Part shown: piece after piece, positions 8,551 through 64,000 of the stretch
Numbering within the stretch: position 1 is the stretch's first letter
Layout: every line of letters starts with the position of its first letter
From: a virus
Lineage: Duplodnaviria; Caudoviricetes
Direction: 5' to 3' (one strand)
Virus record (IMG/VR): IMGVR_UViG_3300028410_000746
DNA length: 64,000 nucleotides
Program-made: the position numbers and the translations under genes
The notes under the pieces: model-generated
What the model saw: only the letters and a program-made list of their open reading frames with translations
What the model was told of the DNA's origin: nothing
Database searches by the model: none

Positions 8551-9006
8551 TCAGGAGCCGAGAAGGCTGGGGAGGAACTCCGCAGCGTCTTCGTAGCTGG
8601 GGAAGATGTGGTCGGCGGCCTGTCGAATGAACGCGTGGTCCATGCAGTGCTCCTCGGTCAGGCCGGCGAGGACAACGAGCGTGTGGGGTTGCTTGTACGC
8701 CCACGCGATCTCGAAGGTGGTCCCGAGTGAGCGTGAGGTCGCTCCCGTCACGTCCGCGAACAGGACGTCCGCCTGTGCGACCATCCACTGATCACGACCA
8801 AAGATGGAGCGGTCGTTCGAGAGAGGGTCCTCGTAGCCCTTGGCCTTGGCCGTCCCCAGTCCGAGCAGGTGCTCCTTGCCAAGCATCGGATGCAGGACGT
8901 CGAATCCCATCTCCTTGAGCTGTGCCGCTCGGTTGTGGAAGTGGATGTATGCTTCGTCGAGGTTGAGTCCCGTGATGGGTCCCGCGACGTAGACGGTCTT
9001 GGACAT
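8551..9006 (-). CDS. Nucleoside 2-deoxyribosyltransferase / DNPH1-like N-glycosidase family protein
   Basis: VYVAGP at the N-terminus, IFGRDQWMVAQADVLFAD and SLGTTFEIAWAY match the NDT family signature S.GT..E.G.A. AAGGAG RBS. Confidence 0.8.
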   Translation of the reverse strand: MSKTVYVAGPITGLNLDEAYIHFHNRAAQLKEMGFDVLHPMLGKEHLLGLGTAKAKGYEDPLSNDRSIFGRDQWMVAQADVLFADVTGATSRSLGTTFEIAWAYKQPHTLVVLAGLTEEHCMDHAFIRQAADHIFPSYEDAAEFLPSLLGS

Positions 9007-11262: not shown

Positions 11263-12917
11263 TGACTCACAAGACTACACGCATGTCCAAGGCCGGTCAG
11301 GTCTTCTTGCACTTCACCAGCCGCAAAGACGCTGGCTTGATCAAGCGGTCTGGCAAGCTGTGGTCGTCGAGCTATGTTGAGGGCGTCTACGCCATCGAAG
11401 AGGGGGGCGCCTACATACCCGGAGTCCAACAGGGTTCATTGGGCCGCACGAAGGTCCGCGACACGGCGGTCGTTTTCACGACGCGAGTGCCTCCCAACCA
11501 GCGCTACTCGGAGGAGACCATCTGGTATGCGGATTCGATTCCCGTGCGCGTTCTGGAGGTCCTCCCCGTGGACCGAGCCGTATCGAAGTACCTCTACGTG
11601 CCGGGGTCAGACTCGAAGCTGTACACGAAGATGGAGGAAGCCGCGCGTAAGCTCCAGGAAGACCCTGCGATCACGCGGAAGGCAAAGTCGCTTCTTGGCG
11701 TGGACTGCAAGGTCTTCCTGGACATCCCCGCCGAACTTCGAGGGGGCAAGGTGCGGGTCGTGTTGTATCTGATGATGTCGCCCGGCGCTGACCCAAACAT
11801 CCCCTCCGAGCGCGACCTTGGACGCATCCTGCAAGAGGCCTTGGAGGCGCAAGGCCTCTCGGTACAGGTCACCCCGGAAGACTTCTCCCTGGAAGATCGT
11901 ACGGGCCCGGACAGCCTGTATAACGACACGCTCATGACTGCGTTCTTCCTGGTCGAGGAGCCTTCCGGATCACGTAAGGGTACGTCCCACCAGCGCGAGC
12001 TTGCTGTACGCGTCGCATCACTGTGGAGCCATCGTGAGCGTCTCGCGGGAGCGCCCGCGCGTGCGCGTCAAGATATGGCCAAGAAGCTCCTGTCGCACCT
12101 GCTCCGTAATGCGAACTGGATTCCTTCGGCTTTCAGCGACGGCCTGGAAGCCATCGTGCCCGCTCAACAGCTTCTGAGTCTACCGGAGTGGCCTGCGAAC
12201 ACTCCCGCGCGCCTGCGAGTACAGGTGAGTACGCGTCTCCAGACGTCCTCATACAGCGCCTCAAGGATTCGCCTCAAGGTCCGTGAGGAGCCCACAGAGG
12301 AGAACATCTACCTCCTCCTGGGGACTCCGCGTGTGCGGTCCTCTTTGCTCCACGAGCTGGTGCATTACGTGGACGACATGGCGCAGCGTCTCAACCTCTC
12401 CAAGGACTACGACTCCTCGAACCGCGACACGTACTTCAACGAGGCCGGCGAAATCAGCGCCTATGTTGGCCAGCTCGCCGGGTCGGTCGGCTCTACGTCC
12501 ATGCGACGACTGCGCAAGGCCTTGCGTGGGGTCCGCAGCGGCAAGCCTCTCCACACGGTGCTGTGGGAGGTACCGGAGCTGTCAGGTTGGGGCAGCGAAT
12601 ACTTCACCGAGCTGCTCGACGTAAGCAGCATCACCGACAACCCCCTACGAAACGGGGACTACTTCAACAAGCTCGACGTCTCCCATCTCAAGCTCTTGGG
12701 CAAGCACCTCAAGCCCAAGGAGCGTCGCACCTTCCTCCGGGACCTGTACCTTTCCCTGGAGCGCATCCGACGTCGTGAGCTGATTCCGGAGGTGGCGAAG
12801 TTCCTCAAGAGCCGGCCCGAGGTCCTGGAGGTCGAGGAGGACGAGGAATACTCATGGAAGCCCTCGGGCCCCAAGACCGCCAAGGCGTGGTGGGCGTGGC
12901 TCCTCAAGCAGGCTTGA
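11262..12917 (+). CDS. Multidomain protein with an N-terminal ART-like (HxT) domain and a HExxH zincin metallopeptidase-like domain
   Basis: ATG overlaps the upstream TGA, with GGAGGGAGG RBS. Motifs LHFTS...LIKRSGKLWSS...GVY and SSLLHELVHY...YFNEAGEISAY. Confidence 0.6.
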   Translation: MTHKTTRMSKAGQVFLHFTSRKDAGLIKRSGKLWSSSYVEGVYAIEEGGAYIPGVQQGSLGRTKVRDTAVVFTTRVPPNQRYSEETIWYADSIPVRVLEVLPVDRAVSKYLYVPGSDSKLYTKMEEAARKLQEDPAITRKAKSLLGVDCKVFLDIPAELRGGKVRVVLYLMMSPGADPNIPSERDLGRILQEALEAQGLSVQVTPEDFSLEDRTGPDSLYNDTLMTAFFLVEEPSGSRKGTSHQRELAVRVASLWSHRERLAGAPARARQDMAKKLLSHLLRNANWIPSAFSDGLEAIVPAQQLLSLPEWPANTPARLRVQVSTRLQTSSYSASRIRLKVREEPTEENIYLLLGTPRVRSSLLHELVHYVDDMAQRLNLSKDYDSSNRDTYFNEAGEISAYVGQLAGSVGSTSMRRLRKALRGVRSGKPLHTVLWEVPELSGWGSEYFTELLDVSSITDNPLRNGDYFNKLDVSHLKLLGKHLKPKERRTFLRDLYLSLERIRRRELIPEVAKFLKSRPEVLEVEEDEEYSWKPSGPKTAKAWWAWLLKQA

Positions 12918-13004
12918 AGATAGTTCTTATAACGACGTGATCGTGAACGCCCCCGGCGCATGGTGCCGGGTTTACGCAGCCTCATCGCTACGACGGACTC
13001 CCAC

Positions 13005-24940: not shown

Positions 24941-25384
24941 ATGATCCATTGTACGAACCCGGCCAACATCCGCGAAGGCGACCTGATCCTCACCTACTAC
25001 GTGCTGTCGGTCACGACGGAGAGGGTCGTGTATGTGGTCATGGACGTCCGACGTATCGAGCATGTAGGCTACGACTCTGATATGCGTGAGTGGTACTGGG
25101 AGGCGCAGCCCCTGTACAAGACGTGGGTGTACTTCAACACGGGGACCTGCTTTTCGCTGATAGGTAGACACTCCTCCATGGTCTATCCAAGACCAGAAGA
25201 GCCTGTCCTTCTTGTTCGAGGGCGTCCTCTGCAAAGCCCACAGCGCATACGCAGCTTCTTCAAAGAGGTGTTCTGGAGCTTGAGAGACGACCTGATCCTG
25301 AAAGCTCACGACTGCATCACGCGAGAAAACTTCGAGGACGAAGACGGTGTAGATGACGGAGGGGTGGTGACACGATGCCTGTGA
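24941..25384 (+). CDS. Accessory protein, tandem paralogue 5
   Basis: AAGGAG RBS. MIHCTNPANIREGDLIL...YFNTG...DDLILKAHDC. Confidence 0.7.
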   Translation: MIHCTNPANIREGDLILTYYVLSVTTERVVYVVMDVRRIEHVGYDSDMREWYWEAQPLYKTWVYFNTGTCFSLIGRHSSMVYPRPEEPVLLVRGRPLQSPQRIRSFFKEVFWSLRDDLILKAHDCITRENFEDEDGVDDGGVVTRCL

Positions 25385-28581: not shown

Positions 28582-28611
28582 TTGACACGTCCGGCCCGTT
28601 GAGGTTACCGT
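28582..28611 (+). promoter_or_regulatory. Candidate CRISPR array 1 promoter TTGACA-N18-TACCGT
   Basis: Same architecture as the array 3 promoter (GGCTTGACA...AGGTTACCRT). Confidence 0.7.
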
Positions 28612-28721
28612 AATGAAGTCTGGAGCGGTGAGGAGCGGTGACGGTCTTTGTCACTGGACCCTGAAAGTCTTTGAAAACTGAATACTTACGTGATTTCACC
28701 CATGTGACTTCTTGTCGCAGA
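28612..28721 (+). promoter_or_regulatory. CRISPR array 1 leader
   Basis: Positions 28665-28721 match the array 3 leader at 50 of 57 positions (counted by hand). Confidence 0.85.
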
Positions 28722-29368
28722 CCCCTCCCCGTGTACGCGGGGATGTCCCGTGCCTACCCTTGTCTACGAACGGGGCGCGGCCCCCCTCCCCGTGTACGCG
28801 GGGATGTCCCCCTTCGACGGTCACGACGACCATCGACACCAACCCCCTCCCCGTGTACGCGGGGATGTCCCCTACAACCTGGGCTCGGCTCGCTCCAGGC
28901 AAGCCCCCTCCCCGTGTACGCGGGGATGTCCCCACCCACATCACGACCTCGAAGGACTCGTTGGTCCCCTCCCCGTGTACGCGGGGATGTCCCCATGGCG
29001 TCTGTCATGGGCAACAGGATGGACTTCCCCTCCCCGTGTACGCGGGGATGTCCCCGGGTACGTGAGCGCCTTGGCGGAACCCTTCCCCGTGTACGCGGGG
29101 ATGTTCCCCGTGTACGCGGGGATGTTCCCCATTACAGGGCGGCACACCCTAGGTTCATAACCCCTTCCCCGTACACGCGGGGATGTTCCCCAGACACCCC
29201 AGATCCACCTTGGCGTCCAGACCCCTTCCCCGTACACGCGGGGATGTTCCCCTCACACCGAACGAGCGAACGCCAATGTGCCCTTCCCCGTACACGCGGG
29301 GATGTTCCCACCATGCCTTTTTGGACATGCACTGATTGTCGCTTCCCCGTATACGCGGGGATGTTCCT
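28722..29368 (+). CRISPR. Type I-E CRISPR array 1: 12 repeats (one overlapping, last degenerate) and 10 spacers
   Basis: 29-nt repeats CCCCTCCCCGTGTACGCGGGGATGTCCCC start at 28722, 28783, 28844, 28905, 28966 and 29027. Hybrid repeats at 29080 and 29101. CCCTTCCCCGTACACGCGGGGATGTTCCC at 29162, 29223 and 29281; degenerate repeat at 29340. Spacers are mostly 32 nt, plus one each of 24, 29 and 30 nt. Confidence 0.97.
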
Positions 29369-33484: not shown

Positions 33485-33542
33485 GCAGCACTCCTTGACG
33501 TGGGGTCCTTCACCCTGCGCACAAAAAGGTTAGGCATGGCGC

Positions 33543-33703: not shown

Positions 33704-33732
33704 GTGTTCCCCGCGCGAGCGGGGAAGTTCCT
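33704..33732 (+). CRISPR. Solitary type I-E repeat with no array
   Basis: GTGTTCCCCGCGCGAGCGGGGAAGTTCCT with intact CCCCGC/GCGGGG stem. No further repeat at +61 nt. Confidence 0.85.
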
Positions 33733-57633: not shown

Positions 57634-58365
57634 TCAGAGGGCCACAAGGGCGGCGGCGGGCTTGAGAAGGACAAGGCCGGCCCCGAAGGCCTTGCCCCGA
57701 CCGATGCCGTTGCGCCACAGGGTCACGAACTTCTCGGGGTCGGTGACCTCGACGCGCGCCTCAAGCTGCACGAAGTCCATCGTAATGGGGTTGCGCCGTC
57801 CCACGCCCTGCTCGGAGAACACGGGGGTCAAGGCGGTGACCCTGTGCAGCTTGAAGCCGCCGTCCTCCGAGCGCCTCTCAAGCCACTCGAAGAGGAGGGC
57901 GTCGAGGTCGCGAGGCGTCTCCCCATTCGCTTCGCACATGAGCTTCTCGTAGGTCTGGAGACCCAAACGCTTGGAGCGCCCCTTGGGCACGATCCGCTCG
58001 TCACGGGTACAGACGGTGGCGTTGACCCATGCTCGGAGGTCGAGGCCGGCACCCATGTGCATCGTGGGCTGCTCGATCGTCTTGGTCAGAAGCTTCACGT
58101 AGCCGTGAGGGTCCGAGGGGATCTCCGTGGACTGGATGTAGAAGGAGGAGCCCTTGAAGGGGGTGAACATGAAGGGTCGGTCTTTGCGGTCCTCCACCGG
58201 GTCGAAGAGGTCCCAGACGAACTGGTGTGCGGTGTAGATGCCCTCGGACGTGTAGCGGGAGAGCTGCTCGATTCCCTTGGCCGTGAAGGTGGCGCGTGAG
58301 ATGTAGAGAGGGGTCGAGGTGGGGGGTGTGGTGGTGTTGAACGGGATGTTGACTTGCGTGCTCAT
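57634..58365 (-). CDS. cas6e: Type I-E Cas6e (Cse3/CasE)
   Basis: AHQFVWDLF and the C-terminal G-loop GIGRGKAFGAGL. GGAG RBS before ATG at 58365. Confidence 0.95.
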   Translation of the reverse strand: MSTQVNIPFNTTTPPTSTPLYISRATFTAKGIEQLSRYTSEGIYTAHQFVWDLFDPVEDRKDRPFMFTPFKGSSFYIQSTEIPSDPHGYVKLLTKTIEQPTMHMGAGLDLRAWVNATVCTRDERIVPKGRSKRLGLQTYEKLMCEANGETPRDLDALLFEWLERRSEDGGFKLHRVTALTPVFSEQGVGRRNPITMDFVQLEARVEVTDPEKFVTLWRNGIGRGKAFGAGLVLLKPAAALVAL

Positions 58366-58441
58366 TGATAACTCCAAAAATACCCCCGCACGAGGCGGGG
58401 AGGTTGAGAGGGGACCCCCGCGTGAGCGGGGAAAGGGGCAC

Positions 58442-59788
58442 TCACTCGGCGGCGGCGGTCTCGGAGGCCTCCACGGCGATACCGAGCGTCTGGTAGATGG
58501 CATCCACGATGTCATCCAGGGTCGTACACACCTCGCCGCCCGACTCCAGGGCCGTGAGGTCCTTGGTCGAGGACCACGTGAGGACACGCTCATGGTCGAC
58601 GCCCACGCGGGTCACGATGCGGTTGTGGTGGTCCTCCAGGCGCGTGAGGGCCATCTGAAGAGGATCGTTGGACTCCACAGGCACCAGGAACGCGTCGGTG
58701 TACTGAGTGTTCTGGGTCTCCCCGATGGTCACCATCAGGTAGGGGGACGGGATGCTCGCAGCCATCGTGGACTGGTTACCCGAGGGGCGCACCATCACGA
58801 GAGCCTTGACGAAGGCGTGGATGGTCTCACGGAGGAGGTCCTCCTGACCGCTCCCGAAGCGGCGAGCCAGCTCACCGATGTGGAGGCCCACGTAGGCGTA
58901 GTTGACGCCCGAGGTGAAGCTCTTGTGGCCCATATGCGAGGCGCCCGTATTGGAGTTGAAGCAGTCCTGAGCCGAGAAGAAGTCGTCCTCCTCGGGCATC
59001 ACGCCGACGCCGATGGTGTGCGCGAACTGGACGCAGGCCGCTTCATTGTCCTGTGCGAGCTGCGCGACCATGCGGCCGAAGAGGCTCACGTCGACGTTGG
59101 GCATCCTCGTGAGGTCCGTGAAGCTCTTCGCGGTCTCAGTCAGGCTCTCGAAGACGACGGAGGGGTCCGTGAAGTCCAGACCCACCAGCGCCTCGAAGCC
59201 CAGCGTCAAGACCTCCTGCTCCGCCTGCTTGAGCTTGATGGCCGAGCCGAACATGCGGCCGTCCTTCTTGTCGCTCTTTTTGTTCTTCTTCTTCTTGGTG
59301 TCTCCTTCGGACTCGTTCGACTCGTCGTCGAGAGCGTCCTTGGTCGAGTACGGCGTGATGCCTCCCTCGGCGTACAGGGTACCATCCGCGATGAGGCCCT
59401 TGAGGAGCGTGAGAAGCGCCGCTTCGGTCTTCTTGGTGAGCTTGGCGCCCTTGAAGCACTGCGTGAAGAAGTTCGGCGTCGTCATCATGTAGGCGAGCAG
59501 CGCGGCGGCTCGATACGACCTCTCAGCCTCCTGGCCCGCCTCGACGGCCTTCTCACTCTTGAAGACCAGGAACGATCTCGTGTTGTCGCTCATGACCTTG
59601 CGCTGACGGAGCACATCGAAGTGCATGGAGGCACGAATCGCCGCCTTCTCCGCTTGGCTGGAGATGCGGTAGCGCATGGCGTTCCCGAAGAAGGAACTCT
59701 TGGGGTTACCCGCGTCATCGCGGTTGATGTTGCTGGGGGGCAGCACACCGAGCATGTGGAACTGGAGCTTTGTTTTCACGTTCATCAT
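58442..59788 (-). CDS. cas7: Type I-E Cas7 (Cse4/CasC)
   Basis: PPSNINRDDAGNPK...RYRISSQAEKAAIR, DVSLFGRMVA, ACVQFAH and DDFFSAQD. Confidence 0.97.
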   Translation of the reverse strand: MMNVKTKLQFHMLGVLPPSNINRDDAGNPKSSFFGNAMRYRISSQAEKAAIRASMHFDVLRQRKVMSDNTRSFLVFKSEKAVEAGQEAERSYRAAALLAYMMTTPNFFTQCFKGAKLTKKTEAALLTLLKGLIADGTLYAEGGITPYSTKDALDDESNESEGDTKKKKNKKSDKKDGRMFGSAIKLKQAEQEVLTLGFEALVGLDFTDPSVVFESLTETAKSFTDLTRMPNVDVSLFGRMVAQLAQDNEAACVQFAHTIGVGVMPEEDDFFSAQDCFNSNTGASHMGHKSFTSGVNYAYVGLHIGELARRFGSGQEDLLRETIHAFVKALVMVRPSGNQSTMAASIPSPYLMVTIGETQNTQYTDAFLVPVESNDPLQMALTRLEDHHNRIVTRVGVDHERVLTWSSTKDLTALESGGEVCTTLDDIVDAIYQTLGIAVEASETAAAE

Positions 59789-62829: not shown

Positions 62830-63197
62830 CAAGCCACCTCTACGGGCGCGCCGCACAGGTGGCAGAACTGCGAGGCGGGGATCAGCTCAGTCCCGCAGTT
62901 GTGGCAATACACGGCCTTACGGGGACCCTCCACCTCGAACTCCCCGAGCAGGTCGAGGTACGTATCATCCCTGCATCCCGCCAAGGAGAGTCGAATGCCG
63001 GGGAGGAGGTCGTCGTGGTGGTAGTCATGACCCTTGTGCAACAAGGTCGCGTTGTCTGCGTTGGGGGGACCCTGGAGGTCATTGACCCTACGCCCTCCAG
63101 GCTTGAAGACCCATAGCCGCACGGGGTACCCTCGATCAAACTCCAGCTCTCCGGTGCGACCTGTTGTGGATGCGACTTCATACTCATGATGTTTCAT
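62829..63197 (-). CDS. Double zinc-ribbon domain protein
   Basis: C-terminal YCHNCG...QFCHLCG; GGAGG RBS; stop overlaps the next ATG. Confidence 0.7.
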   Translation of the reverse strand: MKHHEYEVASTTGRTGELEFDRGYPVRLWVFKPGGRRVNDLQGPPNADNATLLHKGHDYHHDDLLPGIRLSLAGCRDDTYLDLLGEFEVEGPRKAVYCHNCGTELIPASQFCHLCGAPVEVA

Positions 63198-63200
63198 ATC

Positions 63201-63247
63201 TCAACCTCCTGTGGTCTGTATATACCACAGGAGGTTGAAGCTGTAAA
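63201..63247 (-). promoter_or_regulatory. Candidate cas3 operon promoter TTTACA-N17-TATATA inside a 15-bp perfect inverted repeat
   Basis: Arms TCAACCTCCTGTGGT (63201-63215) and ACCACAGGAGGTTGA (63224-63238). -35 at 63247-63242 and -10 at 63224-63219. Confidence 0.8.
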
Positions 63248-63580
63248 AGGAAAACCCCACGTGTGTGGGGAAGGGGCGCGTAACTGCGGGGGAGGTCGTA
63301 GGAGCAGGGGAACATCCCCGCGTGTGCGGGGAAGGGCAACTGTATCAACTCAGCGTCCGGGAGTACGTGGGAACATCCCCGCGTGTGCGGGGAAGGGTTT
63401 TTGGGCGATCTTGCCCCTTTGGATGATCGGGGAACATCCCCGCGTGTGCGGGGAAGGGTTGAGCGTGTCGGCGGCGTCGTCGAGGGCGTAGGGGACATCC
63501 CCGCGTGTGCGGGGAAGGGGCGCTGACGCGCTCCCCCAAGACCGTGATCGTGGGGACATCCCCGCGTGTGCGGGGAAGGG
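63247..63580 (-). CRISPR. Type I-E CRISPR array 3: 6 repeats (terminal one degenerate) and 5 spacers of 32 nt
   Basis: Repeat CCCTTCCCCGCACACGCGGGGATGT(C/T)CCC on the minus strand; plus-strand starts at 63552, 63491, 63430, 63369 and 63308. Degenerate repeat at 63247. Confidence 0.97.
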
Positions 63581-63720
63581 TCTGTGCCAAGAAGTCACAT
63601 GCGTTAGATCGCGTAAGTATTCGGTTTTCAAAGACTTCTCAGATCCAGCGCCGTTCGGTGCCACCCTTGAGCGACCTCTCCGAGGTCCTTATGGTAACCT
63701 TGGAGAGGGAGACCTGTCAA
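63581..63720 (-). promoter_or_regulatory. CRISPR array 3 leader and promoter TTGACA-N18-TACCAT
   Basis: 63581-63637 matches the array 1 leader at 50 of 57 positions. -35 at 63720-63715 and -10 at 63696-63691. Confidence 0.85.
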
Positions 63721-63751
63721 GCCTCTTTCACAGCCTCGAAGAACACGGGGA

Positions 63752-63780
63752 GGGGACATCCCCGCGTGTACGGGGAAGAG
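63752..63780 (-). CRISPR. Solitary type I-E repeat upstream of the array 3 promoter
   Basis: CTCTTCCCCGTACACGCGGGGATGTCCCC on the minus strand, preceded by TGGCACAGA, the same 9 nt that end the array 3 leader. Confidence 0.85.
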
Positions 63781-64000
63781 TCTGTGCCATACGTGTGAAC
63801 TTGAGCATGGGGAAGTCCTCAAAGAAGAAGTAGGGGTCCACGGATTTTCGAGGGTAGCGAAAAAAGCAGCATTGGTAACCTCTTTTGGCAGGGATACCAC
63901 AACCACCTCCCCCACGTCAAGGGGGTATTACGTGCTCCAACGTGCGCCGTGGAACGTGTGCTCCACATCTCGTCCAGCCTGATCCGGGAAGACGGGATGC

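Follow-up and report, generated by a model that had tools for sequence, protein, structure and literature searches.

Introduction

Huge phages reportedly carry CRISPR–Cas loci that lack adaptation genes, Al-Shayeb et al. 2020 being said to have described them, and the phage locus considered here resembles those loci in its phage-borne effector genes, its short scattered arrays and, over the 64 kb analysed, its lack of cas1 and cas2. Our subject within it is narrower, one decayed unit inside such a locus and not a whole system: a solitary repeat, R1, which together with its flanks we call the R1 unit. At least one repeat-like sequence lies in the intergenic DNA of 53% of type I-E loci (Shmakov et al. 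2023, PMC10120712), and such stand-alone repeats are said to arise sporadically by recombination (PMC10120712). The CreR described from type I-E loci consists of psi-R1, psi-S and psi-R2, with 15 consecutive matching nucleotides beside AAG in the vicinity of the casA promoter; it is this work on CreR and CreA that introduced the notion of a partly complementary guide (bioRxiv 10.1101/2023.03.10.532045). Racr units are viral solitary repeats, typically not associated with cas genes, that are highly expressed from an active promoter, mimic host repeats and inhibit the cognate CRISPR–Cas system through aberrant Cas complexes (Camara-Wilpert et al. 2023, PMC10651486).

The R1 unit fits among the stand-alone repeats of I-E loci (PMC10120712). 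Like them, it is an isolated, near-identical repeat with a degraded partner, placed in intergenic DNA of a type I-E locus; unlike them, its repeat pair is fused with no spacer between, its locus is on a huge phage, and no target combining a PAM and a seed was found for it near a cas promoter. With CreR and CreA (bioRxiv 10.1101/2023.03.10.532045) it shares the standing of a repeat-derived element that heads a cas operon, but it has neither two repeats flanking a spacer-like segment of 20–60 nt nor, within the 64-kb window, a PAM-adjacent match of 10–15 nt or more at a cas or toxin promoter. As in Racr (PMC10651486), a single CRISPR repeat lies in a virus genome with a promoter-like box upstream; R1, however, is a neighbour of the cas genes and arrays of the phage itself, its promoter is poor and it is predicted to enter a competing fold. 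We read the unit, with a probability of about 0.68, as what is left of a CRISPR array that formerly adjoined array 3 in tandem, a relic rather than a regulatory RNA; as a collapsed array remnant, it would be an instance of an already described class.

The cas locus and its arrays

The window, by which we mean the whole 64,000-nt stretch that was analysed, carries cas3, cas7, cas6e, cas5 and a cas8e/cas11 fusion on its minus strand (62566-54610), with cas6e at 57634-58593. Neither cas1 nor cas2 was seen in the 64-kb window or in L020 (IMGVR_UViG_3300021978_000001), a 437-kb IMG/VR contig whose Cas3 is 49–52% identical to that of the window. The arrays and isolated repeats of the window are the following.

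28722-29368, plus strand: array 1
54490-54035, minus strand: array 2
63247..63580, minus strand: array 3, six repeats
63581..63720, minus strand: promoter and 140-nt leader of array 3, ~64–66% identical to the array 1 leader
33704-33732, 58436-58408 and 63780-63752: isolated repeats

The core of the R1 repeat matches 22 places in the window against 0.03 expected. Array 3 lies upstream of two small ORFs, which are followed by the cas3-cas7-cas6e-cas5-cas8e/11 series, and its promoter (TTGACA-N18-TACCAT, 63720-63691) is the sole sigma-70-like promoter called by a promoter scan of 63100-64000. The array 1 and array 3 leaders show clear homology, the identity given above being ungapped and the global alignment scoring z = 11.9. 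In both leaders (28582-28721, plus strand, and 63720-63581, minus strand) exactly 140 nt run from TTGACA to the first repeat, and the two have in common a near-identical block of ~60 nt next to the repeat, despite lying 35 kb apart on opposite strands. Just 3′ of the array 3 −10 box, at 63670-63686 on the minus strand, is a perfect 6-bp hairpin, GACCTC-GGA-GAGGTC, of which the array 1 leader has no equivalent.

A solitary repeat behind a decayed leader-like region

The R1 unit was first picked out as a 29-nt repeat with array 3 leader-like sequence before it and, after it, 31 nt reaching exactly to the array 3 promoter, and both descriptions are borne out: along the minus strand, TGGCACAGA is followed by R1, then by 31 nt (63751-63721), then by TTGACA at 63720-63715.

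63752..63780, minus strand: solitary type I-E repeat R1, CTCTTCCCCGTACACGCGGGGATGTCCCC, 29 nt, with an intact stem that includes one G-U pair
63781..63789, minus strand: junction TGGCACAGA, identical to the final 9 nt of the array 3 leader
63781..63920, minus strand: decayed leader-like region, 140 nt
63891..63920, minus strand: vestigial promoter TTGACG-N18-TATCCC, with TTGACG at 63920-63915 and TATCCC at 63896-63891
63910..63922, minus strand: 13-mer CCTTGACGTGGGG, whose only other exact copy in the window is at 33493-33505 on the plus strand

Between the unit and array 3 there are 171 nt, and the cas3 of the phage is ~1.2 kb away. R1 agrees at 27 of 29 nt with the repeat of array 3, and equally with the distal repeat of array 1; its 8-nt 3′ handle, ATGTCCCC, is that of the leader-proximal array 3 repeats (63580, 63519), whereas in its loop variant, GTACAC, it goes with the distal array 1 repeats and not with array 3. 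Taken together, junction and repeat (38 nt) match the leader/first-repeat junction of array 3, exactly 200 nt downstream, at 36 positions (95%); at the junction position the array 1 leader ends in TGTCGCAGA and not TGGCACAGA.

The TTGACG-N18-TATCCC element, which the first-pass annotation had listed as weak, is present and fails the −10 criteria of the promoter scan. Its TATCCC stands in exact register with the TACCAT of array 3, and the distance from the T of TTGAC to the first base of the repeat is exactly 140 nt in the solitary unit, in array 1 and in array 3. By our own estimate the chance of such a placement is roughly 5e-4 to 5e-3, and a TTGACG at exactly −140 hints that something still constrains the solitary unit.

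Between these anchors the resemblance fades. With its ends set aside, the interior of the leader-like region agrees with array 3 at 18% of positions and with array 1 at 26%, where random offsets give 25 ± 5%; global alignment yields z = −0.3 for array 3 and, for array 1, z = 2.0 (p about 0.04); and the 60-nt repeat-proximal block of the array 1 and array 3 leaders is absent upstream of R1. The region was thus not copied recently from the array 3 leader, nor from that of array 1, and we rejected a recent duplication of the array 3 leader. The broader proposal of a tandem leader duplication keeps the TTGACG at −140 and the shared 9-nt junction on its side and loses the interior, which leaves it faintly indicated. 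A further sign offered for it, the recurrence of AGGTTACCA, is real in that the sequence occurs twice (63881-63873 and 63700-63692), but the copies are 19 nt out of register and 81/500 and 38/500 shuffles score equally well, a chance level at which we do not count it as evidence of homology. Our reading is that the region either belongs to the leader family and has long been decaying, or is a mosaic in which gene conversion from a neighbouring array renewed a 38-nt patch. The contrast between a near-perfect R1 and junction and the scrambled leader adjoining them counts, like the −140 placement, against a mere relic; to account for it, the repeat must be under selection or must recently have been converted by array 3 or array 1.

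Reading frames in 63790-64000 reach a GC3 of at most 0.59, against 0.71–0.88 in real genes, and this stretch is therefore non-coding. A hidden protein-coding gene across the R1 unit (a 95-aa ORF at 63915-63628 and a 37-aa ORF were the candidates) was likewise set aside for lack of a Pfam match and for too low a GC3, and an Rfam search returned nothing relevant. Both copies of CCTTGACGTGGGG lie upstream of leader-bearing solitary repeats, on the same strand as the repeat, at distances of 140–142 and 209–211 nt; at 33493, its reverse complement overlaps the ribosome-binding site of a divergent gene for a 1242-aa product.

A second repeat fused to the first

The segment between R1 and the array 3 promoter resolves into the following parts.

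63721..63751, minus strand: 31-nt segment after R1, read as a repeat stub, a degenerate remainder and ~5 nt beside the −35 box
63743..63755, minus strand: stub CCCCTCCCCGTGT, 13 nt, an exact match to the start of the proximal array 1 repeat
63726..63755, minus strand: possible whole degenerate second repeat, psi-R2, composed of the stub, TCTT and CGAGGCTGT
63743..63767, minus strand: predicted alternative RNA helix of the R1 3′ arm with the stub arm

Earlier described as a spacer-sized segment, the 31 nt open with TCCCCGTGT, which is the 5′ stem arm of the array 1 repeat and which, besides the stub, occurs in the window in eight array 1 repeats and once at 25145. Read base by base, the segment is not a spacer, its first 9 nt being repeat arm. 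The stub shares the terminal CCCC of R1, so that no spacer lies between the two; and since an exact second-repeat stub abuts R1, the unit is a repeat fused, spacer-less, to a broken second repeat. How far that second repeat extends is less distinct: CGAGGCTGT agrees with the repeat 3′ arm CGGGGATGT at 7 of 9 positions (p about 0.02), and a stricter global alignment test of the psi-R2 tail was not significant. Reading the sequence 20–60 nt downstream of R1 revealed no degraded distal repeat.

Predicted RNA fold

In the predicted fold of 63830-63690, the 3′ arm of R1, ACGCGGGGA (63767-63759), pairs with the TCCCCGTGT segment (63751-63743; UCCCCGUGU in the fold) as a 9-bp helix around a 7-nt loop, UGUCCCC, and this helix appears in both the minimum-free-energy and the centroid structures. 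The partition function at R1 assigns P = 0.001 to the canonical Cas6e hairpin and P = 0.999 to the alternative helix. For comparison, among 14 true repeats of arrays 1 and 3, each folded with its own downstream 31 nt, the canonical hairpin reaches P = 0.99–1.0 in 13, the remaining repeat giving 0.42. The R1–stub helix is thus the form predicted to replace the Cas6e hairpin in RNA. The promoter/terminator scan of 63100-64000 called no intrinsic terminator at the repeat–repeat helix, which no terminator-like T-run follows.

Were Cas6e nonetheless to cut, at 63760/63759, the resulting RNA would be left without a second repeat from which to gain a 3′ handle and would run on into the array 3 leader. 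Given the competing fold and the missing handle, a working guide from the R1 transcript appears unlikely; folding during transcription, or early binding by Cas6e, could provide a route to cleavage despite the alternative helix.

Relatives of the locus

Close homologues of this Cas3 are rare, with only two among 5.8 billion proteins (49% and 45% identity), and L020 is the one relative in IMG/VR. A metagenome scan for closer relatives gave only loci at or below 35% identity, and a repeat-pattern scan of IMG/VR only three unrelated single repeats. In L020, nine arrays or mini-arrays fall within 22.6 kb (1-22619), all on the cas strand. Some of them separate cas7 from cas6e and cas6e from cas5; repeat loops differ within arrays, stems show the compensatory pairs CCCCAC/GTGGGG and CCCTGC/GCAGGG, and terminal repeats lie directly ahead of ribosome-binding sites. 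Within one L020 spacer, at 1341-1392, a 19-nt sequence, GTTCCTCGTGCAGTACACG, is duplicated in tandem. The promoter of the cas3-proximal array is preceded in L020 by a decaying mini-array.

8815-8829: 3′ half repeat, upstream of the cas3-proximal array promoter
8849-8877: first repeat of the mini-array, followed by a 33-nt spacer
8911-8939: second repeat of the mini-array, with the compensatory stem change CCCTGC/GCAGGG

From the end of this mini-array to the −35 box of the cas3-proximal array (TTGACG at 8967) is 27 nt. The mini-array and the R1 unit occupy the same position and have no common sequence, the mini-array has no leader-type junction, and its spacers gave no regulatory-type partial matches in the DNA searched. 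Nowhere else in the two phages do repeats stand immediately upstream of an array promoter. Eroding units at the same site in both phages, with no other array so furnished, favour an ancestral second array at the site upstream of the cas3-proximal array. Two other candidates for shared ancestry found no support: the end of the window against the L020 gene upstream of the mini-array (E = 0.088), and the small ORFs between array and cas3, which are not homologous between the window phage and L020.

Probable collapse of an upstream array

A collapsed array had been one of the options raised at first pass, and it is the one that the evidence upholds: an exact second-repeat stub abuts R1, other spacer-less pairs occur in the genome, and L020 has its mini-array at the same site. 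The R1 unit would then be the remains of an older array, comprising the ghost of a promoter, a scrambled 140-nt leader, a leader–repeat junction and one intact repeat, with a second repeat that would have become fused to R1 through the common CCCC, without a spacer, and have decayed past its first 13 nt. Repeats of this family begin and end with C-runs (CCCC, TTCCC), and the junction sequences suggest that exactly one spacer may have been lost when the end of a repeat slipped onto the start of its neighbour, a later deletion bringing the stump to within ~5 nt of the sequence flanking the array 3 −35 box. We infer this order of deletions, as we do the absence of function in the unit, from what is observed: its sequence anatomy, its predicted fold, the lack of targets and the decaying mini-array of L020. 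Transcribed by read-through or from a weak promoter, the stump would be expected to form the 9-bp repeat–repeat helix and not the Cas6e hairpin. With Cascade and Cas3 present but neither cas1 nor cas2 in the window or in L020, arrays probably lose units more easily than they gain them, and with no adaptation genes in view such losses would stay uncompensated.

Spacer loss of a similar kind is visible in array 1, where two repeats at 29080-29129 (plus strand) overlap by TTCCC and the spacer is gone; in the gap between cas7 and cas6e, two repeat-like hairpins stand ~5 nt apart. The loss in array 1 falls at the switch from the TGTA-loop to the TACA-loop repeat type. The R1 unit thereby documents possible array erosion in a phage with no cas1 or cas2 in view, and suggests that spacers may be removed precisely through short C-rich homology at repeat ends, leaving a repeat-pair RNA that would not present the Cas6e hairpin. 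Should this hold more widely, repeat pairs that lack a spacer could mark decaying arrays. It also counsels caution: a repeat and a spacer-sized gap abutting a promoter mimic a regulatory mini-CRISPR, where a base-level reading gives a fused, broken repeat pair.

The near-perfect state of R1, kept although its leader decayed, speaks for a different account, which we nevertheless think unlikely: that R1 is a stand-alone Cas6e site or RNA switch, or titrates Cas6e/Cas7 as in Racr, the repeat or the repeat–repeat helix marking or cutting read-through transcripts just ahead of the array 3 promoter. Racr RNAs do function as single repeats (PMC10651486), and L020 places mini-arrays at gene borders, one of them with a stem that has undergone the compensatory change CCCTGC/GCAGGG. 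An inhibitor, however, would hit the phage's own system, since the cognate Cas proteins are the phage's own; in the predicted fold, the Cas6e hairpin that such a site would offer is masked; and the unit has no strong promoter, nor a terminator-like T-run after its helix. It is more doubtful still that the spacer-less repeat pair is kept on purpose, with the repeat–repeat helix and the Cas6e hairpin as alternative folds of one RNA. Such a unit would act as a sensor of free Cas6e, or would shield array 3 and the cas operon against transcription arriving from upstream, and the three spacer-less repeat pairs together with the shared 13-mer CCTTGACGTGGGG would then be parts of an undescribed, phage-specific control layer.

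A further solitary repeat lies in an unrelated viral contig of 92.7 kb, L023 (IMGVR_UViG_3300024051_000003): at 12909-12937 it has an intergenic I-E-type repeat, GGGTTCCCCGCCAACGCGGGGATGTTCCG, with no further match to the repeat core in the 13.7 kb searched, and is a candidate solitary repeat unit (Racr).

Target search

The seed search with the 31 nt covered 64 kb of the 373-kb genome and tolerated mismatches at every sixth base. The best seed, which matches the start of the segment, is 10 nt beside an AGG PAM (25148-25136, minus strand), and it falls inside an ORF with no Pfam match (24941-25384), not at a promoter; near the cas promoters of the 64-kb window there was no seed match. Shuffled versions of the segment reach 10 nt anywhere in the window, with any PAM, in 39% of cases, and in 5% beside one of four E. 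coli-type PAMs, which may not be those of this system; the true spacers have seed matches of 8–13 nt by chance. The 31 nt gave only noise at E = 10 against the INPHARED phages, and a 21-base degenerate pattern of them (3 N) had no match in IMG/VR. No convincing target of the segment was found in the window, INPHARED or IMG/VR.

These results bear on the suggestion, made at first pass, of an autoregulatory crRNA-like product. A working regulator of the CreR, CreA or crlRNA kind would be released by a Cas6e cut at 63760/63759, its handle and the 31 nt guiding Cascade to a partly matching site for repression without cleavage. R1 does have an intact stem and 5′ handle region, and the unit heads the cas locus, a common place for such elements (PMC10120712; bioRxiv 10.1101/2023.03.10.532045). 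Yet the supposed guide opens with a repeat arm, the Cas6e hairpin is predicted to be sequestered, and there is no distal repeat to give a 3′ handle, against two repeat-like elements in the described I-E CreR. The one 10-nt seed with its AGG PAM, counted in favour of this account, is compromised by its place within an ORF and a p of about 0.05, and we regard a regulator of this kind as very improbable.

Repeat family and possible host

The repeat family of the phage arrays matches actinobacterial I-E arrays and is typical of Actinomycetota (Streptomyces, Corynebacterium). A minimal empty array, consisting of a leader end and one repeat still open to spacers from a host Cas1–Cas2, would suit that match and the exactly preserved leader–repeat junction, and a leader with a single repeat can reportedly suffice for acquisition in E. 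coli (Yosef et al. 2012), but this account has very little to commend it, for the unit lacks the 60-nt block that adjoins the repeat in the leaders of arrays 1 and 3, the broken second repeat points to loss and not to a unit never filled, and the sampled bacterial leaders end in ..AAGT or ..AAGA and not in CACAGA. The Actinomycetota-type repeats may hint at the host of the phage. Elsewhere in the window, the solitary repeat at 33704-33732 and the end of the array 2 leader (..TTGAAGA before GTGTTCCCCGCG) resemble bacterial I-E arrays (contigs L069 and L119); one bacterial example is a Pseudoclavibacter MAG with ..CAAGAAGT ahead of GTGTTCCCCGCGCGAGCGGGGATGTTCC.
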